NCBI GenBank assembly: GCA_963778905.1
Contig: CAVZWH010000014.1
Coordinates: 1,254-65,253, forward strand
Direction of reading: 5' to 3'
Source of the DNA: Candidatus Staskawiczbacteria bacterium
GTDB taxonomy: Bacteria > Patescibacteriota > Minisyncoccia > Minisyncoccales > Staskawiczbacteraceae
DNA: 64,000 bases
In this document: positions 3,566 through 48,147 of the stretch, in pieces
How the letters are laid out: each line of letters begins with the position of its first letter
Numbering within the stretch: position 1 is the first letter of the stretch
Made by a program: the position numbers and the translations under genes
Notes under the pieces: model-generated
The model's input: the letters and a program-made list of their open reading frames with translations, nothing else
What the model was told of the DNA's origin: nothing
Database searches by the model: none

Positions 3566-4323
3566 TATTTCACCTGGTAAGTTAAATTAATTGTTACATC
3601 TATTTCCTGCTGGCCCGGCTGAACCGTGGGGGCAACGGATGAAACAGCAGCTCCGCCGCCCAATTTCATCGCAGAATTATACACAACAGGAGAAGGGTTT
3701 TCATTATTTTCGTAAACATTAATTATTTTTCCTAAATTTACGCCAGATTCTTTTGCTAAATTTTGAGCATCGGCTTTTGCCTGCGCAATTGCTTTTGCCC
3801 TTGCCTGCTCTTGAAACTGCTCTGGGTTGTCAATTGTAAACTGCAAATCGCCGACTAAATTGGCTCCCTTTATTGTTGCCTGCGACAAAACATCTCCAAT
3901 CTTTGTAAAATCTCTTATTTTTACCTGCACATCCTGCTCCAATGTATAACCTTGAAAAACATTGCCCATTTTTTCTGTATAATTGTAGCTCGGAGACAAA
4001 TTATAATTTGTTGTCTGAATATCTTTATCATCAATCTTCAAATTTTTTATCGCATCTATCACCGCGTTCATTTCCTCTGTGTTGCTTTTTGTCACATCGG
4101 CAACTGTTGAACCTTGGGTTGTAACTCCCAAACTAACAATAGCCACATCCGGCTTTGCGTAAACCTTTCCTTCGCCGGAAACCGTAATTTGATTTTGGTT
4201 TTGCTGACTAATTGTCTGCTGCTGCAAAATTATTTCACCAACCAAAAATACTAAAACTCCCACAACCAAAATCGCCGAGAGCGTAAATGTTTTATTCAAA
4301 AATTTTATTGTTTCTTGCTCCAT
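3565..4323 (-). CDS. SIMPL/DUF541-family periplasmic protein
   Basis: 252 aa; N-terminal TM helix and typical SIMPL strings (ITVSGEGKVYAKPDVAIVSLGV, IQTTNYNLSPSYNY, AKAIAQAKADAQNLA). Confidence 0.7.
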   Translation of the reverse strand: MEQETIKFLNKTFTLSAILVVGVLVFLVGEIILQQQTISQQNQNQITVSGEGKVYAKPDVAIVSLGVTTQGSTVADVTKSNTEEMNAVIDAIKNLKIDDKDIQTTNYNLSPSYNYTEKMGNVFQGYTLEQDVQVKIRDFTKIGDVLSQATIKGANLVGDLQFTIDNPEQFQEQARAKAIAQAKADAQNLAKESGVNLGKIINVYENNENPSPVVYNSAMKLGGGAAVSSVAPTVQPGQQEIDVTINLTYQVK

Positions 4324-4428
4324 ATTTTTTTTAATTTAATAATATTTTTCGTCTGCGGGACATCGCAGACAATTGTTAGAACCATTATCCAGCAATCCAC
4401 TGAATATATTTATTTTTCTTTTGTATTT

Positions 4429-6887: not shown

Positions 6888-7786
6888 ACTTCCATATCTC
6901 TTAATGCTTTTATTCTTTCTTCAATTGGCGGATGGGTGGAAAATAATTTTGTAAACCAATGAGTTTTTTGCTGGCCTTTGTATGGCGAATCAATAAATAA
7001 AGAACTGGCTGCGTCGTTTGTAATTTTCATTGGAGTTTGGTCTGAAGAAATTTTTTCTAACGCGCGAGCCAAACCTTCAGGATATCTTGTAAGCAAAGCG
7101 CCGTCAGCATCTGCCAAAAATTCTCTTTTTCTTGAAATTGCAAGCTGAACTAATGTTGCGGCAATCGGAGCTAAAATGGCGGCAAAAATTCCAACAATGG
7201 CCAAAATTGCTCCGGCTTCGCCGTCGTTTCTGCCTCTTCTTTGACCGCCAAAAAAACTAATTCTTAAAAAGAAATTTGCAAGTATCGCAATAACTCCTGC
7301 CAAAACCGCAACAACCGTGGACAACAACATATCTTTATTTCCAATGTGTGAAAGTTCGTGAGCCAAAACTCCCTGCAATTCCGTTTTGTCTAATCTGTTC
7401 AAAAGTCCTTGTGTCACACAAACTACTGCATGATTTTTGTCTCTGCCGGTTGCAAAAGCATTTGGCTGCATGTCCGGAGTGATATAAATTTTTGGAAAGG
7501 GCAAACCGGCTGTGATGCAAAGATTTTCAACAACTCTGTAAAGTTCCGGATTATCTTTTTTTTCTATAGCCTCTGCTTTGTACATTTTCAAAACAATTTT
7601 ATCTGACCACCAATAACTTCCGAAAGACATAAAAACGCTCAGAAATACGGCGATATATAAAATTATGTCGCTGTTTAAGAGATAAGAAAAAAGCCAGCCT
7701 AAAGCTATGATAAAGACCAAAAACCCAGTTAATAAAAACCAGGTTTTTCTAGTGTTTGAATCTGCTTGCGTATAAATGCTAGCCAT
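6884..7786 (-). CDS. htpX: M48-family zinc metalloprotease HtpX
   Basis: 300 aa; HELSHI zinc motif and multiple TM helices; adjacent lemA, a typical pairing. Confidence 0.9.
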   Translation of the reverse strand: MASIYTQADSNTRKTWFLLTGFLVFIIALGWLFSYLLNSDIILYIAVFLSVFMSFGSYWWSDKIVLKMYKAEAIEKKDNPELYRVVENLCITAGLPFPKIYITPDMQPNAFATGRDKNHAVVCVTQGLLNRLDKTELQGVLAHELSHIGNKDMLLSTVVAVLAGVIAILANFFLRISFFGGQRRGRNDGEAGAILAIVGIFAAILAPIAATLVQLAISRKREFLADADGALLTRYPEGLARALEKISSDQTPMKITNDAASSLFIDSPYKGQQKTHWFTKLFSTHPPIEERIKALRDMEV

Positions 7787-19472: not shown

Positions 19473-19862
19473 ATGAAGAGGTTATTCTCTCAAGTTGTCG
19501 CTGCCATACTTGGATTATGGCTGGCGACATTATTTGTGCCCGGGGTTGTAATCAGGACATATCCTAAATCAAACTTCTTCGGTTTTCCTTTAACAGCACA
19601 ATGGGAAATTTTTTTGGTCTTAGGAATTGTTTTAGGATTGCTAAACTATTTTCTAAAACCGCTTTTGAAAACGCTGGCTCTGCCTTTGGAAATAATTACC
19701 CTCGGACTTTTTACAATTGTGATAAATATGGCTCTGTTGTGGCTTTTGGACGTAATGTTTGACGAATTATATGTGCCGCTATTGTTGCCGCTTTTGTACA
19801 CAACATTAATTATTTGGGGGTTAAATATTATTATTAGTTTTTTTATAGCAAAAAATAAATAA
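19473..19862 (+). CDS. DUF360 / phage-holin-4-like membrane protein
   Basis: 129 aa; four TM helices; strings typical of the family (LLNYFLKPLLKTLALPLEIITLGLFTIVINMALLWLL). Confidence 0.6.
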   Translation: MKRLFSQVVAAILGLWLATLFVPGVVIRTYPKSNFFGFPLTAQWEIFLVLGIVLGLLNYFLKPLLKTLALPLEIITLGLFTIVINMALLWLLDVMFDELYVPLLLPLLYTTLIIWGLNIIISFFIAKNK

Positions 19863-20094: not shown

Positions 20095-22092
20095 ATGAAA
20101 AAACTTCCAAGTTTTTCTCAATGGAAGCAAATTTTTAAGATATTAAAAGGAACTGAAAGAATATTTTTTTTAGTTTTTGTTGGTTTAGCTTTGATATCTG
20201 CAATTTATCTTGCAACTGATTTTTATATAAATAATACAAAAACAGCTCCTGCCTATGGCGGAAGTTATACGGAAGGAGTTGTTGGCCAGCCACGATTTAT
20301 AAATCCTATTTACGGAGAGACAGATGACGTTGACAGAACATTAATTGATTTAGTTTATTCGGGGCTGATGGCATATGACAAAGATGGAAAAATAATTAAC
20401 GACCTGGTAAAAAGTTATCAGGTTTCTGATGATGGAAAAACTTATACTTTTCAGTTAAAAGATAATCTTTACTGGCAAGATGGAATGCCCTTAACGGCTG
20501 ACGATGTTATTTACACAATAAAAACAATTCAAAATTCCGATTACAAAAGTCCCCAAAGAGCAAATTGGCTTAACGTGGATGCAGAAAAAATATCCGACAA
20601 ATCTTTTTCTTTTTCTCTTGATGCCCCATATAATTCTTTTTTAGAAAACTGCACGGTAAAAATAATTCCTTCTCATATATGGGAAAAAGTTTTGCCTGAA
20701 AATTTTGCTTTGTCTACTTATAATTTACAACCTATTGGTTCCGGCCCTTATACTCTTTCGGGATTGGAACAAACAAATACTGGTTTTATAAAAAACCTAA
20801 GTTTAACAGCCAACAACAAATATTACAATAAAGTGCCTTATATATCTAACATTTATTTTCAGTTCTTTGCAAACAAAGATGACCTGATTAAGGCTGCCAA
20901 CCAAAAAACAATTGATGGATTTTCTATCACAGATTTAGATGACAATGAGGCTTTGGCTGAAAAACAAGTTCGCCAGGGCTGGTCTGCAAATGAAAAATTT
21001 GATGTTTACTCTTTTACAATGCCAAGATATTTTGCCGTGTTCTTTAACACTCAGAAATCAAAAATTTTATCGGACAGCAATATAACGCAGGCTCTTAATT
21101 ATTCGGTTAACAAACAAGAGTTGGCACAAAAAATAAGCGACTCGTTCAAAGAAAAAATTTCTGTTGTTGACTCGCCAATTCTTCCTGATTATTTTGGCTA
21201 TGCGCAGCCTACAATAACTTATGATTTTAATACAGACACAGCAAACAAACTTTTAGACAAATCTGGATATGTGGATTCGGGCAATAATACAAGGGCAAAA
21301 GCAAATGATAAAAAACCAGCTTTTCAATTCAAAAGTTATTTGTCTCAAGGATCCAAAGGAAACGAAGTTGTGGAGCTGCAAGGATGTTTGGCAAGATTGG
21401 ATCCAAGCTTTGCAACTCTTTTGCAGGGAGAAACCAGTGGAAAATATGGAACAGGAACCGGAAACGCAGTAACAGCGTTTCAAAAAAAATATATGCCCGG
21501 CGTGCCTTCAACTGGCGAGGTTGGAGCAGGAACAAGAAAGGAATTAAACCAACTTTGTCTGGTTCCCCAAGCCAATTCTTTGCCATTGAAGTTTACTTTA
21601 ACTACCATAGACCAGCCTCAGCTTGTTATGGCGGCTAACCTTCTGAAAGATTACTGGCAAAAAGTTGGGGTCACCGTAGACGTAAAAGCATTGGATTTAT
21701 CAGACTTAAAAGACGCAATTAAAAACAGAGATTATGATGCCTTGCTTTACGGTCAAGCTCTTGGAAGCCTGCCCGATTTATATCCTTTTTGGCATTCTAC
21801 GCAAATAAATGATCCCGGATTAAATCTTGCAGAATATCAAAATAAAAATGTCGACCAATTGTTAAAAGATTCCAGAGAAACGCAGGATGAGCAAGCAAAA
21901 GCGCAAGATTACGAAAAACTGCAAGACACAATACTTTCAGACGCCCCTGCCCTGTTTTTATACAACCCTGATTACATTTATTGGGTTTCAGAAAAAATAA
22001 AAGGCGTAGACACAACAAAAATTGTCGACCCGGCAAAAAGATTTGCTAATATAGAAAATTGGTACATACAAACCCGAAGAGTATGGAAATAA
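20095..22092 (+). CDS. family-5 (OppA/DppA-like) ABC substrate-binding protein with an inserted peptidoglycan-binding domain
   Basis: 665 aa; N-terminal TM and SBP_bac_5-like sequence throughout. The insert GSKGNEVVELQGCLARL...TGNAVTAFQKKYMP...GEVGAGTRKELNQL looks like PG_binding_1. Confidence 0.75.
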   Translation: MKKLPSFSQWKQIFKILKGTERIFFLVFVGLALISAIYLATDFYINNTKTAPAYGGSYTEGVVGQPRFINPIYGETDDVDRTLIDLVYSGLMAYDKDGKIINDLVKSYQVSDDGKTYTFQLKDNLYWQDGMPLTADDVIYTIKTIQNSDYKSPQRANWLNVDAEKISDKSFSFSLDAPYNSFLENCTVKIIPSHIWEKVLPENFALSTYNLQPIGSGPYTLSGLEQTNTGFIKNLSLTANNKYYNKVPYISNIYFQFFANKDDLIKAANQKTIDGFSITDLDDNEALAEKQVRQGWSANEKFDVYSFTMPRYFAVFFNTQKSKILSDSNITQALNYSVNKQELAQKISDSFKEKISVVDSPILPDYFGYAQPTITYDFNTDTANKLLDKSGYVDSGNNTRAKANDKKPAFQFKSYLSQGSKGNEVVELQGCLARLDPSFATLLQGETSGKYGTGTGNAVTAFQKKYMPGVPSTGEVGAGTRKELNQLCLVPQANSLPLKFTLTTIDQPQLVMAANLLKDYWQKVGVTVDVKALDLSDLKDAIKNRDYDALLYGQALGSLPDLYPFWHSTQINDPGLNLAEYQNKNVDQLLKDSRETQDEQAKAQDYEKLQDTILSDAPALFLYNPDYIYWVSEKIKGVDTTKIVDPAKRFANIENWYIQTRRVWK

Positions 22093-22670
22093 ATTTGAAA
22101 AAATTTACACCTGATGTTCGCTATTTAGATGATATGCGCGAAGTTTTGTTTGACAAAGATTTTGCAAAAAATTCTCCAAATGTCCCTTTGTATTTTATGT
22201 ACAGAGGTTTAGATAAAAAAGATGGACTAAGATATGACATCACAATTATTCCGGCAAAAATGCTTGGCGATGAATTTAATAAAACAAAAGGGCATTATCA
22301 TGTCGGCGCGTATCAAGAGCTTTATATGGTTTTGCAAGGAACAGCAATATATTTAATGCAGAAAAAAAACTCCGACGACAAAATTAAGGATGCTTATTTT
22401 GTTAAAGCAAAAAAAGGAGATTCTATTATGATTCCTCCATACTATGGACACGTTACGATAAATCCTTCGGAAACTGAAGAATTAAAAATGGCAAATTGGG
22501 TTTCGGAAAATTGCAAAAGCGATTATTCTTTTTTTGAAAAAATGCACGGCGCTTGTTATTATTATACAAATCAAGGCTGGATAAAAAACGAAAATTATAA
22601 ATTGATTCCAGAACTTAGACAAGAGCAACCTCAAAAATCTCTTCTGCAAGATTTAAGTTTTCTAAAGTAA
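22083..22670 (+). CDS. pgi: cupin-type glucose-6-phosphate isomerase
   Basis: About 195 aa from MEINLKKF; cupin metal motifs TKGHYH and PPYYGHVTINP, as in archaeal-type cPGI. Confidence 0.65.
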   Translation: MEINLKKFTPDVRYLDDMREVLFDKDFAKNSPNVPLYFMYRGLDKKDGLRYDITIIPAKMLGDEFNKTKGHYHVGAYQELYMVLQGTAIYLMQKKNSDDKIKDAYFVKAKKGDSIMIPPYYGHVTINPSETEELKMANWVSENCKSDYSFFEKMHGACYYYTNQGWIKNENYKLIPELRQEQPQKSLLQDLSFLK

Positions 22671-22671
22671 A

Positions 22672-22800
22672 CCCCGTTAGAAGTCTTAATAACCTGATAA
22701 AATTTTTTGCTGGTTAAAATTACAAATGGCGAAAAATATTGAAATGAGATTGCAAAAATATTTTCAAAAAAAATATTTTTGCTCAAGACTTCTAACGGGG
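22672..22800 (+). mobile_element. MITE-like element, copy A (129 bp)
   Basis: TIRs CCCCGTTAGAAGTCTT / AAGACTTCTAACGGGG. TAAA direct repeats at 22668-22671 (which contains the pgi stop codon) and 22801-22804. Internal AT-rich hairpin. Confidence 0.65.
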
Positions 22801-22808
22801 TAAAATCC

Positions 22809-22891
22809 GCGGGTATGGCGGAACAGCAGACGCGCTGGCTTCAGGAGCCAGTGGGAGAAATCTCGTGGAGGTGCAAATCCTCCTACCCGCA
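22809..22891 (+). tRNA. tRNA-Leu (anticodon CAG)
   Basis: GCGGGTA acceptor, anticodon arm CTGGC-TTCAGGA-GCCAG, long variable arm, T arm GGAGGTGCAAATCCTCC, TACCCGC-A. Confidence 0.9.
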
Positions 22892-22921: not shown

Positions 22922-24676
22922 ATGATAAATTATAGACAAAATAAGATTAATGTACCGCAAAAAAACCCCATTGAGAAGCCTTTGGCTTCCAGCGGGGTCG
23001 GTAATTTAAGAATTATTCCTTTGGGCGGATGCGAAGAAGTTGGAAGAAACATGACTGTTTTTGAATATGGACAAGATATTGTGATTTTGGATATGGGACT
23101 TCAATTTCCAGAAGAAGATATGCCGGGAATTGATTATGTAATTCCAAATATAGAATATCTAAAAGGAAAAGAGAGAAATATCCGCGCAGTTATTTTTTCT
23201 CACGGGCACTTAGACCACATTGGAGCTGCCCCAATATTGTTGCAAAAACTTGGAAATCCGCAAATTATCGGCAGGCCGCTTACTCTTGAAATGGTAAAAC
23301 ACAGAGTTGAAGATTTATACCACGGCGCCTCAAAAAAATTAAGAACAATATATGTAAAAGATTTACAGCAAAAAATAAATCTTGGAGTTTTTACGTTAAG
23401 TTTTTTTGCAATTGACCATAGCGTCATGGATGCAGTCGGGGTAATTTTAGAAACTCCGGTGGCTACAGTAATACATCCGGGAGACTGGACAATTGAAAAA
23501 AATCCAATTGGCAGAAAGGCTATAGATTATTCTCTCTTGGCCAGATTAAAAAAGCCAACAATATTGATGCTTGAATCTTTGGGATCTACAATTTCCAAAG
23601 AACCTGTGACCGAAGAAGAAATGTTAAAAAATCTTTACAAGTTGATAACAAAAGCTCCCGGCAGAACTATTATTGCCACATTTTCTTCGCAAATCCAAAG
23701 AATAAAACAAATCATGGAATTTGCGGCAGAGACCAATAAAAAAGTTGCTTTAGATGGTTTTTCAATGAAATTAAATGTTGAGCTTGCAACAAAATTGGGG
23801 TATATAAAAATTCCCAAAGGAGTTATAATTTCAACGGACAAGGCGCGCAATTATCCCGACAACAAAGTAATTATTGTTTGCACCGGAGCGCAGGGCGAAG
23901 AAATGGCGGCATTGTCAAGAATTGTTGCCGGCAACCACAAACACATAAAAATTAAAAAAGAAGATACTGTAATATTTTCTTCATCTGTAATTCCGGGCAA
24001 CGAACGCACTGTTCAAAGAGTAAAAGATAATCTTTACCGCCAATCTGACAATGTTTATCATTCGGATATTATTGACATCCACATTTCAGGACACAGCAAC
24101 ATAAATGGAATCAAGGAAATGCTTGGCGAAATAAAACCGACTTATTTTATTCCTGTCTATGGTAACCATTATTTCTTAAAAGAAGCGGCAAAAATTTCTT
24201 ATGAAATGGGCTTTCCAAAAGACAAGGTTTTTGTGCCAGACAACGGATCTATAATAAAATTTACAAATGGGGCACACTCTGGGTCTGCAGAAATGTTGAA
24301 AGAAAAAGTTCCTTCAAATTATGTTTTTGTTGACGGGCTTGGAGTTGGCGATGTTGGAGAAATTGTTTTGAGGGACAGGCAAATGTTAGCCGAAGACGGA
24401 ATGTTTGTTATAGTGGCCGTAATAGACAAACGAACAGGCAGAGTAAAAGGTTCGCCCGATATTATCTCGCGCGGATTTGTTTATTTAAGAGAATCAAAAG
24501 ATTTGCTTAGCCAAACGCGCAAAAAAGTTATTGAAATCGTTGATAAATCTGCCGGCCACGGAGGGCCGGTAAACTGGACTTATGTAAAAGACGAAATAAG
24601 AAACAAAGTCGGCGACTTCTTGCATTCAAAAACTTCAAGAAGGCCAATGATTTTGCCAGTAGTTATTGAAGTTTAA
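22922..24676 (+). CDS. rnj: ribonuclease J (beta-CASP metallo-beta-lactamase)
   Basis: 584 aa; HGHLDHIG motif and RNase J-like organisation (LRIIPLGGCEEVGRNMTVFEY, ISGHS). Confidence 0.88.
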   Translation: MINYRQNKINVPQKNPIEKPLASSGVGNLRIIPLGGCEEVGRNMTVFEYGQDIVILDMGLQFPEEDMPGIDYVIPNIEYLKGKERNIRAVIFSHGHLDHIGAAPILLQKLGNPQIIGRPLTLEMVKHRVEDLYHGASKKLRTIYVKDLQQKINLGVFTLSFFAIDHSVMDAVGVILETPVATVIHPGDWTIEKNPIGRKAIDYSLLARLKKPTILMLESLGSTISKEPVTEEEMLKNLYKLITKAPGRTIIATFSSQIQRIKQIMEFAAETNKKVALDGFSMKLNVELATKLGYIKIPKGVIISTDKARNYPDNKVIIVCTGAQGEEMAALSRIVAGNHKHIKIKKEDTVIFSSSVIPGNERTVQRVKDNLYRQSDNVYHSDIIDIHISGHSNINGIKEMLGEIKPTYFIPVYGNHYFLKEAAKISYEMGFPKDKVFVPDNGSIIKFTNGAHSGSAEMLKEKVPSNYVFVDGLGVGDVGEIVLRDRQMLAEDGMFVIVAVIDKRTGRVKGSPDIISRGFVYLRESKDLLSQTRKKVIEIVDKSAGHGGPVNWTYVKDEIRNKVGDFLHSKTSRRPMILPVVIEV

Positions 24677-38763: not shown

Positions 38764-38848
38764 TTAGGATATTTGATTTTCCTTAGAGTAAAGTGGCCAC
38801 TTCTTTTTGTATACTATATAGTATATTCTTTTCTAAAAACAATGTCAA

Positions 38849-38972
38849 CCCCGTTAGAAGTCTGACTACTAAAAATGAGCATTTACTAAGCAGAATATTG
38901 AAAATCAATTATTTCAGCGTATATGAAAAATAATTTATATAAATTATTTTTCATCAAGGACTTCTAACGGGG
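38849..38972. mobile_element. MITE-like element, copy B (124 bp)
   Basis: TIRs CCCCGTTAGAAGTC / GACTTCTAACGGGG; TCAA direct repeats at 38845-38848 and 38973-38976; internal AT hairpin. Lies 2 nt past the ftsW stop codon. Confidence 0.6.
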
Positions 38973-38978
38973 TCAATA

Positions 38979-40070
38979 CTATCTTCTGGTTTTTATTGAT
39001 TGCAAAATACCGAGTGAAATAAAATTACCTATTAAGCCCGAACCGCCGTAACTGATAAACGGCAAATAAATTCCTACAACCGGCAGCAAAGATAAATTCA
39101 TTCCAATATTAATAAAAAATTGGACTGTTAAAATTATTGCAAACCCCGAGGCAAAAAGACGCGGAAAGTTTGACTTAGATTCAATTGCAATTTTTAGAAC
39201 GCGCCAGACCAAAAATCCATAAATTATAAATAATGCTAAAACTCCAATCATTCCCCACTCTTCTGCAATTACAGAAAAAATAAAATCAGTGTGGGGCTCG
39301 GGCAAAAATCCGTATTGCACCTGGCTTCCTTTTGCCAAGCCTTGGCCAAAAATTTGGCCGGAGCCAATTGAAATTTTTGTCTGGTTCTGGCTCCACGAAG
39401 CTCCCAAATAATCATAAGGAAATAAAAAAGCAGTTATTCTTTGTTTTTGATAATCCTTTAATAAAAAATGCCACGAAAACCCAGCTACCAACACAAAACA
39501 TATAGAAAGAATTAAAAAGTGTTTTATTTTAATTCCAGATATCAATAAAATTCCCAGCCATATTAATAACAAAACCATAGTTCCGCCCAAATCCGGTTTT
39601 ATAAAAACAAAAATTGCCAGCGGCAAAACGTACAAGCCCGAAAAAATAATATGCCTGAATTTATACATTTCAACGTGCCTCATTGAAAAATATTTTGCCA
39701 GCAAAACCACCAAAACAATTTTTGTCGGCTCAATCGGGTCCAAAGACAAAAGCCCAACCTTGTACCAGCCTCTTGTTCCCCTGATTACCGGAGCAAAAAA
39801 ATGAAGGCCAGCCAACAAAAATAAACATATTCCGTACAAAATTAAAATTAAATAAGAATTATTTCTTAATATTCTGTAATCAAAAAAACTTACAGCAATC
39901 ATGACTAAAAATCCAAACGCAAAAAAAATAATTTGCTTTTCAAAATTTGAAAAATTGTTTTTTGCCACGCAGGTGCTATAAATTGCAGCCAAACCAAAAC
40001 AAACCAGCAAAAATGCTGGAATTGTTAGTCCCCAATCAAGTTTTTTTAATTGACTCGTTAAAACACCCAT
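38979..40070 (-). CDS. SEDS-family peptidoglycan glycosyltransferase (FtsW/RodA)
   Basis: 363 aa; about 10 TM helices; family strings (GTRGWY, EPTKI, PEPHTDFIFSVIAEEWG, LPFISYGGS). Confidence 0.85.
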   Translation of the reverse strand: MGVLTSQLKKLDWGLTIPAFLLVCFGLAAIYSTCVAKNNFSNFEKQIIFFAFGFLVMIAVSFFDYRILRNNSYLILILYGICLFLLAGLHFFAPVIRGTRGWYKVGLLSLDPIEPTKIVLVVLLAKYFSMRHVEMYKFRHIIFSGLYVLPLAIFVFIKPDLGGTMVLLLIWLGILLISGIKIKHFLILSICFVLVAGFSWHFLLKDYQKQRITAFLFPYDYLGASWSQNQTKISIGSGQIFGQGLAKGSQVQYGFLPEPHTDFIFSVIAEEWGMIGVLALFIIYGFLVWRVLKIAIESKSNFPRLFASGFAIILTVQFFINIGMNLSLLPVVGIYLPFISYGGSGLIGNFISLGILQSIKTRR

Positions 40071-43805: not shown

Positions 43806-45740
43806 CTAGTGCGAAGTTGCAATTGTTGGCACCTGTATACACAATGCCTCAGACCCCGAATTCTGACATAATCCTGAAACAGTTAACGATGCTGTTTTGT
43901 ACGACGGAGACAAACCGAGCAGGTTGTCGCCCTGGTAAACTGCTTCTAAGGTGTGAGTTCCTGAGAAGGACGGAGTGTAGGTGTAGGTGGCTGTGCCACT
44001 TGAGTTTGTGGTAACAGGAGTGCTGTTGATGAGGGTTGCAGAATCATTGTCTCTAAATGTAATTGGTTCGCCTGCAACAGCTGAAGACAGCGTGGCTGTC
44101 AGAGTTACTGCGGTTCCCACTGAAATGCTTGATGAGCTTAAAGTAAAGGTGTTGATGGTAGTTGGGTTGCTCTGGGCCGGAGTCTGCACGCACAATATCT
44201 CAGAGCCCGAGGTTGAACAGCTGCCGGAAATGGCAAGCTGGGCTGTTTTGTACGACGGAGACAAACCGAGCAGGTTGTCGCCCTGGTAAACTGCTTCTAA
44301 GGTGTGAGTTCCTGAGAAGGACGGAGTGTAGGTGTAGGTGGCTGTGCCACTTGAGTTTGTGGTAACAGGAGTGCTGTTGATGAGGGTTGCAGAATCATTG
44401 TCTCTAAATGTAATTGGTTCGCCTGCAACAGCTGAAGACAGCGTGGCTGTCAGAGTTACTGCGGTTCCCACTGAAATGCTTGATGAGCTTAAAGTAAAGG
44501 TGTTGATGGTAGTTGGGTTGCTCTGGGCCGGAGTCTGCACGCACAATATCTCAGAGCCCGAGGTTGAACAGCTGCCGGAAATGGCAAGCTGGGCTGTTTT
44601 GTACGACGGAGACAAACCGAGCAGGTTGTCGCCCTGGTAAACTGCTTCTAAGGTGTGAGTTCCTGAGAAGGACGGAGTGTAGGTGTAGGTGGCTGTGCCA
44701 CTTGAGTTTGTGGTAACAGGAGTGCTGTTGATGAGGGTTGCAGAATCATTGTCTCTAAATGTAATTGGTTCGCCTGCCACAGCTGAAGACAGCGTGGCTG
44801 TCAGAGTTACTGCGGTTCCCACTGAAATGCTTGATGAGCTTAAAGTAAAGGTGTTGATGGTTGTTGGGTTGCTTGGCGGTGGTATCTGTACACATAACAA
44901 CATAGATCCTGAGGTGGCCAGCACACCACAACCTGTTACATTAAAAGGCCCTATTTGAGATTGAGACGGCAGAGTTTCTATTTGAGCGTCCCCATTATAT
45001 TTGGCCTGAATAGTAATATTGCCTGTTGCGCTAAAAGTAATATAATAATATGCTCTAGCTACTCCGAGAGAATCAGTGGTTGCTGTTCCTATGGTAATTG
45101 GCGAACCTGGATTTGTTATGTCAGTAAAAGTGATTGTTTGGCCAGCTATTACCGGACCATTTGTGTATTTCAAAGCAGCCGAAAGATTAATTGTAGAACC
45201 CTGTGTTATTGGTAAAGGAGAAGCTGTAAAATTAATTATTTGGGTTTGCGCTGCGTTGCTTATGACAAAACTTGTTATATGATTATAATCTGTTCCTGAA
45301 GATTCTTGCATGCTGTTATTTAACAAATTATCTGTCGCAGAAATGTCAACCCAGTAAGTGGCGTTGGGATCCCAAACAGAAGTATTAGAAACATCAATAA
45401 TCAAGCCAAAAGTGCCGTCTCCGGCGGCGCCATCGCGATGCGAGCCGTCGTCGGACATTGTGCCATCTATAGAATATACGTCATTCATATATTGCACAGG
45501 ACTGCTGTTGGGCACCTCAATGTTTGCTACTGAAGAGTAAACTCCGGAAACATCCGTGACATCAGCCGTTATAACAATAAAATTAGAATATTTATAAACT
45601 TTAACGTTTGCAACGCTTGGATATGCAGTTCCGCCGGGAGGGACAACTTCAAAAGTTGGCATGGCATAACATGCATTAAAAGAAAAACAGAAAATAAGCG
45701 ATACAAAAATTAAAATTGTATAAAAGAAAAACTTTCTCAT
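43806..45740 (-). CDS. secreted Ig-like-repeat surface protein (candidate pilus-associated adhesin)
   Basis: 644 aa; signal peptide; four Ig-like modules, of which the last three are near-identical 117-aa repeats. Immediately downstream of the minor pilin genes. Confidence 0.7.
   Translation of the reverse strand: MRKFFFYTILIFVSLIFCFSFNACYAMPTFEVVPPGGTAYPSVANVKVYKYSNFIVITADVTDVSGVYSSVANIEVPNSSPVQYMNDVYSIDGTMSDDGSHRDGAAGDGTFGLIIDVSNTSVWDPNATYWVDISATDNLLNNSMQESSGTDYNHITSFVISNAAQTQIINFTASPLPITQGSTINLSAALKYTNGPVIAGQTITFTDITNPGSPITIGTATTDSLGVARAYYYITFSATGNITIQAKYNGDAQIETLPSQSQIGPFNVTGCGVLATSGSMLLCVQIPPPSNPTTINTFTLSSSSISVGTAVTLTATLSSAVAGEPITFRDNDSATLINSTPVTTNSSGTATYTYTPSFSGTHTLEAVYQGDNLLGLSPSYKTAQLAISGSCSTSGSEILCVQTPAQSNPTTINTFTLSSSSISVGTAVTLTATLSSAVAGEPITFRDNDSATLINSTPVTTNSSGTATYTYTPSFSGTHTLEAVYQGDNLLGLSPSYKTAQLAISGSCSTSGSEILCVQTPAQSNPTTINTFTLSSSSISVGTAVTLTATLSSAVAGEPITFRDNDSATLINSTPVTTNSSGTATYTYTPSFSGTHTLEAVYQGDNLLGLSPSYKTASLTVSGLCQNSGSEALCIQVPTIATSH
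43885..44880. repeat. tandem repeat, 351-bp unit, about 2.8 copies
   Basis: Shadow ORFs at 43987, 44338 and 44689 are spaced 351 nt apart, and the first two are identical over 100 aa. I saw one synonymous difference (44778 C versus A). Confidence 0.9.
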
Positions 45741-46611: not shown

Positions 46612-47346
46612 TTATTGTGCGTTAAGATTTCTTTGTGAGACCGTTGTTTGGATTGTTCTTGTCGGCTCTTGGCTGTCTCCTGGAATTTGGATTTGCATAG
46701 TAACGGTTACTCTTGGCTGAAAATATTCTAAGCCGGTGTCTTGGTCGTCAATAGGATAACCAGCGCCATAAATTCCATTAAACCCGTCTATTCCAAACCT
46801 GATTGAATTTATATTAAGCTCTTTTGAAGTAAGAGCCACTGCGTTTTCGTCGCCAACTTTGGCATAGGGCGAGTATGTTTTTAATTCTTTCAAAATATAC
46901 GGAGTTGAGCTTGTGTCTAAATAAAATTCTTGGCAAACGGGAACTCCTGAATTATCTGTATTGGATTGGTTCAAAAATTTTATGCCGGTAAAAAAACTGG
47001 CGCCGGAAATGGTAACTGGCCTGGTGAGCAGATATGTGTATCCTGAATAATATGTCTCGGGATTCGGGCTTAAAGAAGAGTTATCAACAAGACAATTTCC
47101 CGCAGTATCTTTTGTCGCCATTCTCATTGCTTTTGACATATATTCTTCAACATAACTCACTTGATTCAAAAGTTCCTGCTCGGCCAAAATTTTCTTCTGG
47201 TGCTGAACAATTGAAATAAAAATTCCTATAGCAGCTCCGATGACAAACATAAATACGCCCATAACCACAATCAATTCTATTAAAGTAAACCCCGTTAGAA
47301 GTTTGCCATCCTTAGAATATTTTTTTGTAGTTATTGATGATTTCAT
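46612..47346 (-). CDS. minor type IV pilin (PilW-like) whose leader is encoded by a MITE-like element
   Basis: Starts at ATG 47346: MKSSITTKKYSKDGKLLTG|FTLIELIVVMGVFMFVIGAAIG. The ORF-track TTG start at 47406 is inside the element and less likely. Confidence 0.7.
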   Translation of the reverse strand: MKSSITTKKYSKDGKLLTGFTLIELIVVMGVFMFVIGAAIGIFISIVQHQKKILAEQELLNQVSYVEEYMSKAMRMATKDTAGNCLVDNSSLSPNPETYYSGYTYLLTRPVTISGASFFTGIKFLNQSNTDNSGVPVCQEFYLDTSSTPYILKELKTYSPYAKVGDENAVALTSKELNINSIRFGIDGFNGIYGAGYPIDDQDTGLEYFQPRVTVTMQIQIPGDSQEPTRTIQTTVSQRNLNAQ

Positions 47347-47419
47347 TGTTAATTTGTGGCGGTAGAAGTCCAGCTGGACTTCTACCGCGATATTATTTAA
47401 TCGCAAACTTCTAACGGGG
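47290..47419 (-). mobile_element. MITE-like element, copy C1 (130 bp), inside the 5' end of a pilin gene
   Basis: TIRs CCCCGTTAGAAGTTTG / CAAACTTCTAACGGGG; TAAA direct repeats at 47286-47289 and 47420-47423; 100% identical to copy C2. Confidence 0.7.
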
Positions 47420-47450
47420 TAAACCTTTTGATTTTCTCTGCATTTTGAAA

Positions 47451-48050
47451 TTAACTATTATAGTTGTACCAATTATAAAAATATTCTTCTGCTGTAATAG
47501 AGCCGGGAGCGCCAGTTGGATTCAAAACATTTGGCTTTTCATCCCAATAAACAGTGACAGCAATTTTTGCAACGTAATCAATGCCAGGTAAAAAACTTAC
47601 TAAAATTTGCCTCCTAAATTTTGTCTTCTGGCCGCTGCTGTAATTATAAAATCCGTTTGTATCTATTTTCAAATAATCATTTTGGTATGTAGCCATTGCA
47701 AAAGGTACTGTTGCGCCCGAACCAGTTGTGTAATCTGCTTCGCATCCTCCAATATCGCTTGTGCAAGCAGAAAGGCTTTGAAGCCAATCAGTGGTGGTGC
47801 CAGAATCCGAGGCAAGCCAGTTGGTATCTCTTATATTTCTTGCTATCTCTATGCCCTCCTGAGCTAAATAAGCTGCTGTAAGACGGTCGGAGGCATCGGC
47901 AGTTAAAACAACTATCATGGAAAAAGCGCCATAAATGCCCACAATAGCAACGGACAAAATAAAAATAGAAATAATCAGTTCAATAATTGTAAACCCCGTT
48001 AGAAGTTTGCCATCCTTAGAATATTTTTTTGTAGTTATTGATGATTTCAT
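47451..48050 (-). CDS. minor type IV pilin (PilV-like) whose leader is encoded by a MITE-like element
   Basis: Starts at ATG 48050: MKSSITTKKYSKDGKLLTG|FTIIELIISIFILSVAIVGIYGAF. Confidence 0.7.
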   Translation of the reverse strand: MKSSITTKKYSKDGKLLTGFTIIELIISIFILSVAIVGIYGAFSMIVVLTADASDRLTAAYLAQEGIEIARNIRDTNWLASDSGTTTDWLQSLSACTSDIGGCEADYTTGSGATVPFAMATYQNDYLKIDTNGFYNYSSGQKTKFRRQILVSFLPGIDYVAKIAVTVYWDEKPNVLNPTGAPGSITAEEYFYNWYNYNS

Positions 48051-48123
48051 TGTTAATTTGTGGCGGTAGAAGTCCAGCTGGACTTCTACCGCGATATTAT
48101 TTAATCGCAAACTTCTAACGGGG
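47994..48123 (-). mobile_element. MITE-like element, copy C2 (130 bp), inside the 5' end of a pilin gene
   Basis: Same sequence as C1; TAAA direct repeats at 47990-47993 and 48124-48127. Confidence 0.7.
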
Positions 48124-48147
48124 TAAACCTTTTGACATATTGTTTTA

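Follow-up and report, generated by a model that had tools for sequence, protein, structure and literature searches.

The Correia elements (NEMIS) of Neisseria are miniature inverted-repeat transposable elements (MITEs) of about 100–150 bp, with terminal inverted repeats (TIRs), a short AT-rich duplication and many copies; they lie beside or inside transcription units, form long hairpins and affect the expression of their neighbours. Four elements resembling them in these respects, called here copies A, B, C1 and C2, are present in a 64,000-nucleotide stretch of a Candidatus Staskawiczbacteria genome (contig CAVZWH010000014.1; ‘the window’ is this whole stretch), a member of the candidate phyla radiation (CPR; Patescibacteria). 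Unlike Correia elements, they have as partner not a transposase-encoding insertion sequence but a 282-bp element holding nothing but the open reading frame (ORF) of a 93-aa GIY-YIG nuclease; the insertions coincide precisely with start codons, −35 boxes and stop codons, and the exact termini recur across about a dozen named CPR lineages. We demonstrate membership of the window copies in this family, target duplication on insertion, empty sites, a nuclease-bearing form, and purifying selection on both its protein and an internal inverted repeat. With a probability of roughly 70%, the window copies are ORF-less, non-autonomous members of a very small inverted-repeat mobile family for which the nuclease would be the mover.

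Other systems share part of these features. REPtrons combine a small nuclease-type gene, the REP-associated tyrosine transposase (RAYT), with flanking repetitive extragenic palindromes (REPs) that are also scattered without the gene, and their hairpin DNA is probably recognised by structure. RAYTs are however HUH/Y1 enzymes of about 150–300 aa, related to IS200/IS605 and usually single-copy, and REPs have no target duplication, whereas here the enzyme is of GIY-YIG type, the repeats lie within or border the ORF, and copies as a rule have 4-bp duplications. GIY-YIG homing genes (T4 seg, I-TevI) are likewise selfish nuclease genes placed at the edges of host genes and using host expression signals, but homing enzymes are larger, carry a DNA-binding domain and invade only the cognate allele by recombination, without inverted repeats, duplication or miniature derivatives; a fold search also puts the element protein nearer to Slx1/UPF0213 than to I-TevI. 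DDE elements of the piggyBac/IS1380 type share the 4-bp T..A duplication, ends of the form CCC...TAGAA and scope for precise excision; they are 5–10 times larger, and no DDE transposase was found here between termini up to 600 nt apart. Finally, Rickettsia palindromic elements are palindromic repeats of about 100–150 bp tolerated and translated inside genes. They insert in frame in the mature protein and have no known enzyme partner, while translation here passes mainly through disposable pilin leaders and short N-terminal extensions. The partner described below is unlike any insertion sequence known to us.

That this is a previously undescribed transposon class driven by a structure-specific GIY-YIG nuclease, with the window copies as its miniature derivatives, we hold at slightly less than even odds. 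If true, the ~282-bp element, with its one 93-aa protein, would be among the smallest autonomous mobile elements known to us; its nuclease would recognise two nested inverted repeats of the element instead of a linear sequence; and a promoterless element would borrow the host start codon, return translation by a built-in restart and have spread in this way through many CPR lineages. Should the nuclease be the mover, GIY-YIG (Slx1-like) enzymes would join the classes that move prokaryotic DNA, here in a near-minimal autonomous element. We found no published description of the element in the literature on its termini or on GIY-YIG elements in CPR/Patescibacteria; a GIY-YIG protein is merely listed among genes transferred from Patescibacteria (PMC12455944).

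Terminal repeats, target duplications and empty sites

The terminal sequence CCCCGTTAGAAGT matches the 64-kb window (G+C 36.8%) eight times without mismatch, and these matches pair into four elements of 124–130 bp, exactly those delimited in a preliminary description of the sequence. Eight or more matches were reached in 0 of 100 shuffles (shuffle expectation 0.71 with up to 2 mismatches), and a rescan of the window at 3 mismatches gave no extra paired copy. The four elements have exact 13-bp termini between identical 4-bp flanks (TAAA/TAAA for A, C1 and C2, TCAA/TCAA for B), as originally reported; the inverted repeat extends to 17 bp in A and about 21 bp in C, and in 4/4 copies the flank adds one further A:T pair to it. 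C1 and C2 are identical at 130/130 positions, with flanks 41–43% identical over 100 nt. Single-strand folds of all four copies consist of a terminal stem and an internal hairpin, with z of −6.7 to −9.7 relative to shuffles. The interiors had been described as unrelated except for a central hairpin. C does differ, with an internal palindrome repeating the core TAGAAGTC of the termini, but A and B share an A/T-rich hairpin 3–4 nt from the right terminus, which is a feature of the family.

One genome per species was scanned for both exact termini placed 85–115 nt apart. At least 118 genome loci carry them, nearly all titled CPR/Patescibacteria, and the copies were tabulated by duplication and by position relative to genes. 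About a dozen CPR lineages are named among the loci listed (Nealson-, Staskawicz-, Falkow-, Kaiser-, Uhr-, Taylor-, Wildermuth- and Yanofskybacteria; Jorgensen- and Tagabacteria, Sungiibacteriota, Kazan and Saccharibacteria), the exceptions by title being one Omnitrophota record and a few labelled Gammaproteobacteria. In the scans made here, the family is confined almost wholly to CPR/Patescibacteria. Among the first 118 loci listed, no lone terminus or larger element was convincing except that of locus L020, discussed below.

From among the matches listed, a set of 131 short copies (107–141 bp, window included) was examined for flanking repeats. Identical 4-mers were present in 97, compared to 0, 3 and 0 in controls shifted by 4 or 8 nt or offset. 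The duplications of these 97 copies are of the form TNNA in 69 and TATG/CATA in 22. The interiors are diverse; a subfamily of 52 members nevertheless shares a conserved non-coding interior while occupying different genes in different lineages, indicating that short copies spread as such. Closely related copies differ in their duplication (TGAA, TATG or TGGA), and a sticky-end rule, by which the duplication would be that of the donor, was rejected on this ground. Two further candidates were discarded: integron attC sites, because the GTT/AAC triplets conserved here are on the outer side of the repeat, opposite to their placement in attC, and guide pairing of the IS200/IS605 type, as one subfamily has different 4-mers and the ends are true inverted repeats.

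Orthologous empty sites were searched by joining the two flanks of each copy and comparing the product with all loci. The empty sites hold the 4-mer once. For example, the copy of locus L006 faces an uninterrupted ...TTTTTTCAT... in L179, and the window itself provides an unoccupied TGAA at 19475 for which the L133 orthologue is occupied (Table 1). Taken together, the duplications in 97/131 copies and the single 4-mer at empty sites show that these are insertions accompanied by a 4-bp target duplication, as the flanks had been interpreted from the window alone. The unoccupied site belongs to ATGAAG (window 19474–19479), the start of a membrane-protein gene, with TACAAT 8 nt upstream.

Neighbouring copies at two loci (L093, 2150–2290, and L094, 4000–4250) are split by exactly one 4-mer (...GGGG TAAA CCCC...), which points to older copies whose duplication served as the target for newer ones. 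At L017 (893–1060) a start codon holds a compound site: a 141-bp copy, in which mini-hairpins of 41–45 nt have degenerate termini, and after it a solo right terminus in repeated form (ATGAACAAAACTTCTAACGGGGTGAACAAAACTTCTAACGGGGTGAA).

A quite different view of the termini is that they form part of a structured RNA, conserved as a regulatory leader or terminator at fixed positions and not mobile, an outcome that the preliminary description had itself named as fatal to a mobile element. The strong predicted folds, the position in 5′ regions and the nucleotide-level conservation of the terminal and internal repeats would agree with it. Nevertheless, an Rfam 15 scan of the window returned five tRNAs only and no RNA family matching the elements at the gathering threshold. 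Positions vary by genome, over many genes and many lineages, and include promoters, stop codons and coding sequence; duplications and empty sites, as well as a long form encoding a protein under purifying selection, are equally at odds with a fixed RNA. We therefore regard it as very improbable. A role of the fold at the RNA level may exist after insertion.

A nuclease-bearing form with the same ends

A longer element with the same termini, whose existence the preliminary description had left to a wider search, was found in locus L020 and in metagenome loci. In L020 (6221–6502) it measures 282 bp, has a TGAA duplication (caATGAA/CCCC...GGGG/TGAA) and lies about 470 bp from a short copy. Its ORF opens at the flanking ATG, reads the left terminus as N-P-V-R-S, stops at a TAA in the right terminus and encodes a GIY-YIG nuclease, WWYVYVL...WYIGSTKDLQKRILRHN...AREKYLKSGMGRRYLKNRLKFFFAHDF. 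A metagenome scan for termini 245–275 nt apart yielded 94 loci. All nuclease matches that reach 53% identity or more with the query (47/47), and one weaker match at 38%, sit between both termini, while the six other GIY-YIG genes (identity up to 47%) have no such termini. Tandem pairs of short copies make up many of the other loci.

The full-length form is 280–296 bp long, mostly 280–286 bp; one element of 315 bp carries a nested mini-copy. Between TIRs of 13–16 bp (IR1), the interior is a single ORF for a 93-aa GIY-YIG nuclease of the UPF0213/Slx1 type. The 5′ end of the element usually lacks a start codon, and its first base typically lies two nt past a host ATG (ATGAA/CCCC). The ORF stops at a TAA within the right terminus; variants of 283 bp use a TGA immediately ahead of that terminus instead. 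Among 44 full-length copies the ORF is intact in 41, and the duplication is exact in 30 (TGAA 15, TAAA 5, TATG 4, TGAG 3). These 44 protein-coding elements share ends and duplication types with the short copies. At the sequence level, the window elements thus satisfy all that defines a MITE, and the non-autonomous, MITE-like nature first proposed for them is borne out by the size of short copies (107–141 bp), TIRs, duplications and a longer protein-coding element with the same ends.

In one group of loci (L223–L232, e.g. L223 845–1440), a nuclease element with a TAAA duplication lies on the stop codon of the target gene of a diversity-generating retroelement (Lcl_C domain). It is followed by a second GIY-YIG gene without termini and by bAvd and reverse-transcriptase genes.

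Searching by protein similarity gave 956 clusters at E < 1e-5, of which the best 120 were inspected. These are 68–100% identical to the query, all with PF01541 and mostly of 93 aa. Although found by protein similarity alone, 75 of the best 120 show PVR[S/N] within the first 30 residues, that is, a translated left terminus. The residue before P varies (41 MN, 13 IN, 7 MS, others), as expected if it is encoded by the host flank. Most clusters inspected end in ..DF or ..GF, with ..YDF, ..KGF and ..HDF as the most frequent C-termini. In cluster P0113, where the gene was called from an internal Met, the DNA still has both termini and a TAAA duplication. The element would account for the many small genes that annotations of CPR genomes label ‘GIY-YIG nuclease family protein’, a common family that has so far attracted no remark.

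Selection was assessed as mean pairwise identity in an alignment of 41 distinct full-length copies. Outside the repeats, first, second and third codon positions have identities of 0.73, 0.81 and 0.46, which reveals purifying selection on the nuclease protein. The ORF also contains a near-invariant reverse-complement pair of 17 nt (IR2), GCAAAAAAGAATTTTAA at 85–101 and TTAAAATTCTTTTTTGC at 248–264 of the element. Inside IR2 third-position identity is 0.86, so that synonymous sites are conserved too, and this pattern marks IR2 as a cis-acting feature, of DNA or RNA, superimposed on the coding sequence.

The short copies are linked to the long form through IR2. Of those listed, 80/131 have a hairpin (9 bp or more) within 8 nt of one terminus, and it is A/T-rich in 68/80. 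From the 3′ arm of the hairpin onwards, short copies look like the last part of the ORF: the full-length right end reads ...AAAATTCTTTTTTGC-CCATG-ACTTCTAACGGGG, to be compared with ...AAAATATTTTTGC-TCAAG-ACTTCTAACGGGG in copy A and ...AAATTATTTTTCA-TCAAGG-ACTTCTAACGGGG in copy B (over a shorter stretch, ...TTTTTTGC-CCATG-ACTTCTAACGGGG in the full-length form versus ...ATTTTTGC-TCAAG-ACTTCTAACGGGG in copy A). The hairpin together with the right-end likeness is consistent with copies A and B being internally deleted relatives of the nuclease element. The A/T hairpin of short copies would correspond to a collapsed IR2; that of copy A (22752–22782), which is placed where the IR2 3′ arm lies in full-length elements, we read as such. 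Short copies would thus keep IR1 and the collapsed IR2 hairpin and use the same kinds of site as the long form.

The nearest sequences in the PDB are the UPF0213 proteins BH0048 (1zg2, E = 6e-6) and EF2693 (1ywl), followed by a weak match to a Slx1 homologue (E = 0.19). An AlphaFold model (pLDDT 79) gave as best fold matches BH0048 and several Slx1 structures, including Slx1 complexes with flap or branched DNA (E = 5e-4 to 4e-3, TM 0.52–0.63), whereas matches to I-TevI and UvrC had E > 1. Residues Y12, Y23, G25, H37, N38 and E57 never vary, and R33 and E69 hardly do; we take the catalytic residues to be those of the GIY-YIG superfamily in general. All four motifs Y.Y, Y[IVT]G, R[IF]..HN and RE[KR]Y[LI]K are present in 102 of the best 120 clusters. 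The element protein is thus a member of the GIY-YIG superfamily, in its UPF0213 (YhbQ)/Slx1 branch. Slx1 cuts branched DNA, flaps and junctions, not linear sequence, and this suggests folded IR1/IR2 as the substrate of the nuclease. By this analogy, the nuclease would recognise the folded repeats and make the cuts that move both long and short copies, and host repair or ligation would create the 4-bp TNNA duplication.

Alternatively, a classical DDE transposase (IS1380-, IS5- or piggyBac-like) encoded elsewhere could move all copies, the GIY-YIG gene being cargo. Perfect TIRs next to a 4-bp near-palindromic TNNA duplication are the signature of DDE transposition; IS1380, IS5 and piggyBac enzymes give 4-bp duplications, and the ends TNNA-CCCC..TAGAAG recall TTAA-CCCTAGAAAG of piggyBac. 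The diversity of short-copy interiors points in the same direction, and a rare large partner is possible as the scans covered termini up to 600 nt apart. Within this distance, however, nothing larger than the nuclease ORF was found between the termini of about 230 loci. Moreover, the left terminus lies within the nuclease ORF, as in 75 of the best 120 clusters, and the stop in or beside the right terminus, while IR2 is kept at the nucleotide level both in the ORF and in short copies. We consider a separate transposase unlikely.

Insertion sites and their effect on host genes

The empty site was rebuilt for each of the 97 duplication-bearing short copies. More than half (54) lie on the start codon of an ORF with 60 or more codons (duplication TATG, or TGAA, TGGA or TGAG after A) and 19 at a −35-like TTGACN or TTTACN without an ORF; the others are at a stop codon (6), apparently within an ORF (6), at a start codon or internal without a decision between the two (2), or in other intergenic positions (10). 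At start codons, ATG or GTG is rebuilt at the right junction. With TTGA-type duplications the next base is C in 17/19 copies and CA in most (TTGACA). Insertion on promoters and start codons of core genes (rpoB, hsdM, pilins) makes the elements a probe of transcription and translation initiation in CPR organisms, which are very hard to culture.

Several further readings were tried and rejected. An outward promoter is not apparent, as no consistent −35/−10 pair was seen by eye in the 52-member alignment, and a promoter consensus scan gave no hit in copies A, B and C1 and one weak hit in C2 (9/12), overlapping its gene-side end. Translational coupling in short copies was not retained either, only 2/52 frames getting to the TAA in the right terminus. 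Leaderless host genes as a target are suggestive at best, with a −10-like hexamer ending 6–9 nt before the host ATG in 14/75.

At −35 sites the same subfamily is present in both orientations. This, and the short inverted repeats shared by ~100-bp segments upstream of genes such as pilin and restriction-modification genes, could evoke invertons, segments that a recombinase flips between inverted repeats to switch the neighbouring gene on or off. Neither direct 4-bp flanking repeats nor empty orthologous sites are characteristic of invertons, the long form is an entire gene, and ten samples of one locus all have the same orientation. No recombinase occurs among the called genes of the loci examined or the ORFs beside the window copies, no dedicated search having been run. 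The chance that the family consists of invertons is, in our opinion, minimal.

For the full-length element at ATGAA sites, the nuclease ORF starts at the host ATG, and the full-length nuclease would be translated from the host promoter and start codon through the left terminus (M-N-P-V-R-S...). At the right junction, ...GAC TTC TAA CGG G/GTG AA., a GTG lies in the host frame 4 nt past the stop. In addition, many elements have an ATG in ..cATGACTTCTAACGGGG.. in frame with the host gene, the frame being ATG ACT TCT AAC GGG G.. (MTSNG), unlike that used in pilins. The host gene would thus restart at the GTG or ATG rebuilt by the duplication, 4–6 nt past the nuclease stop, or alternatively at the in-element ATG, giving an MTSNG N-terminus.

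Codon 5 of hsdM, a type I restriction-modification methylase gene, is a case of the second kind. It is occupied in five diverged contigs (L149, L153, L187, L203 and L211), where the host frame resumes as ATG ACT TCT AAC GGG GTA AAA GAT and MSTNIKDLEN... becomes MTSNGVKDLEN...; the restart ATG overlaps the nuclease stop as ATGA. The nuclease ORFs at this site are intact in 4/5 and 75–83% identical to the L020 query protein, which, with the shared site, indicates an old, vertically inherited copy. In locus L213 an element occupies the ATGA overlap of a small two-gene, toxin-antitoxin-like operon, and the downstream gene has been called with an MVSNGV... start. Gene callers fuse the termini to host genes, yielding MNPVRS.../MTSNG... 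N-termini, long pilin ‘leaders’ and misplaced starts.

Old insertions such as that in hsdM would also fit a nuclease gene that spreads as a free-standing homing endonuclease gene, with short copies as relics decayed in place. GIY-YIG enzymes are classical homing endonucleases, and a deletion from one IR2 arm to the other would make a short copy from a long one. Homing requires flanking homology and makes no duplication, whereas dozens of unrelated genes are occupied here, each with its own 4-bp duplication. Relics decayed in place would account neither for the 52-member subfamily sharing a non-coding interior across lineages and loci, nor for identical C1 and C2 copies in diverged pilin genes, nor for tandem arrays with a single shared 4-nt spacer. 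Homing thus appears improbable, more so than a separate transposase.

In the window, copies C1 and C2 occupy the prepilin cleavage codons of two pilin genes (Table 1). The terminal GGG of the element serves as the Gly-1 codon in C1; read as CTT CTA ACG GGG / TTT AC, the element gives ...LLTG ahead of FT. The in-element ATG would thus provide a disposable leader ending in Gly-1. The pilin leader is cut off by the prepilin peptidase, so that insertions in it should be nearly neutral. In at least 7 pilin genes of 4–5 genomes, an ORF starts with Met, crosses an element and continues into G/FT (C1 and C2, L035, L073 and several pilins of L126/L127). In the latter the leaders include arrays of 71-nt mini-copies, whose period of 71 + 4 = 75 nt keeps the frame. 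Donation of leaders, as suggested in the preliminary description, thus holds for pilin genes, but the short ORF of copy A cited with them is most likely due to chance since it ends at the flanking TAA with a tRNA downstream.

The tandem 71-nt mini-copies (L126 10107–10399; L127 1966–2258, 6461–6531 and ~7100–7500) have single shared 4-nt spacers and read in frame as repeated ...LLTG/FTPLEV units before the real FTLLE/FTLIE N-terminus. In the window, the old pilin starts at C1 and C2 are ATGCAGAGAAAATCAAAAGG.. and ATGTCAAAAGG.., one T short of the FT... frame after notional excision. C1 and C2 have the same 12 nt upstream (TCAAAAGGTTTA; 47420–47445 and 48124–48140, minus-strand flanks) in genes otherwise diverged; gene conversion and decay of the unused start could possibly explain both the identity and the loss of frame.

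Copy A left the stop codon of pgi (cupin-type glucose-6-phosphate isomerase, PF06560) intact; its position, with the pgi TAA in the left duplication and tRNA-Leu immediately downstream, is as described previously. An empty allele was sought through the pgi protein, which has no match on record. Copy B ends 6 nt from the stop of an ftsW/rodA-family gene (38979–40070, minus strand). The end of contig L233 falls inside this copy (L233 2977–3031). Such repeats seem to break assemblies, and the elements could be useful as strain-level markers as well as for explaining contig breaks.

Several observations weigh against reading the window copies as non-autonomous members of a family moved by the nuclease. 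The statement that the window holds no matching mobilising gene stands, tblastn with the family nuclease giving no match and hence no full-length element within the 64 kb, but the partner then envisaged, a transposase, is not what was found elsewhere. Beyond IR1 and IR2, short-copy interiors are not demonstrably homologous to the ORF. We know of no GIY-YIG nuclease that acts as a transposase or gives a 4-bp duplication, and the protein, at 93 aa, lacks a DNA-binding domain of its own. As for the empty sites, these are orthologues of 65–72% identity, not same-strain alleles; for copy B, the sole other public contig with the ftsW-family protein of this organism, L233, is also occupied. Removing C1 or C2 with one duplication brings the old pilin start one T out of frame. 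Lastly, short copies at start codons are mostly inverted with respect to the long form (hairpin upstream in 34, on the gene side in 11), and the frame opened in them by the host ATG stops early, at variable places.

Coordinates and further features of the window

The positions of the four copies, their duplications and associated structures are collected in Table 1.

Table 1. Elements and related features in the 64-kb window (positions from its first nucleotide)
Feature	Position	Strand	Description
Copy A	22672–22800	+	129 bp; without own ORF; between pgi stop codon and tRNA-Leu
Copy A left target duplication	22668–22671	+	TAAA; includes TAA stop of pgi gene 22059–22670
Copy A right target duplication	22801–22804	+	TAAA; tRNA-Leu(CAG) starts at 22809, 8 nt past element
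Copy A hairpin	22752–22782	.	A/T-rich, 13 bp stem, beside right terminus
Copy B	38849–38972	+	124 bp; between ftsW/rodA-family gene stop and rpoB promoter
Copy B target duplication	38845–38848	.	TCAA (+) / TTGA (−); first four bases of rpoB −35 hexamer TTGACA
Copy B second target duplication	38973–38976	.	TCAA
Copy B hairpin	38923–38954	.	A/T-rich; perfect 16-nt arms; fold of 14 paired + 4-nt loop
rpoB promoter-like site	38820–38848	−	TTGACA-17-TATACT, 11/12 consensus matches, intact after insertion
Copy C1	47290–47419	−	130 bp; at G/F prepilin cleavage codons of pilin-like gene 46612–47346 (−)
C1 target duplication	47286–47289	.	TAAA (+) / TTTA (−); gives TTT A.. = pilin Phe+1
C1 second target duplication	47420–47423	.	
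C1 leader ORF in element	47290–47346	−	ATG 47346–47344, MKSSITTKKYSKDGKLLTG, then FTLIEL...
C1 palindrome	47359–47388	.	Perfect, 30 nt, GCGGTAGAAGTCCAGCTGGACTTCTACCGC; repeats TAGAAGTC core of termini
Copy C2	47994–48123	−	Identical to C1; same codons of second, diverged pilin gene 47451–48050 (−), N_methyl motif
C2 target duplication	47990–47993	.	TAAA / TTTA
C2 second target duplication	48124–48127	.	
C2 leader ORF in element	47994–48050	−	ATG 48050–48048, same 19-residue leader, then FTIIEL...
C2 palindrome	48063–48092	.	30 nt, same as C1 palindrome GCGGTAGAAGTCCAGCTGGACTTCTACCGC
Unoccupied target TGAA	19475–19478	+	Within ...TACAATatataaagATGAAG; L133 orthologue holds full-length 281-bp nuclease element (4147–4427)

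The window also encodes, besides the isomerase, RNase J and a type IV pilus cluster that includes a prepilin peptidase as well as several pilins carrying the N-methyl motif. An imperfect hairpin of 33 nt at 22965–22997, CCCCATTGAGAAGCCTTTGGCTTCCAGCGGGG, resembles the family termini and is followed on the minus strand by a T run. It lies inside an N-terminal extension of about 25 residues of the RNase J ORF (22922–24676) and may be a decayed mini-copy. Within the pilus cluster, a 644-aa protein (43806–45740, minus strand) contains three near-identical repeats of about 115 residues.

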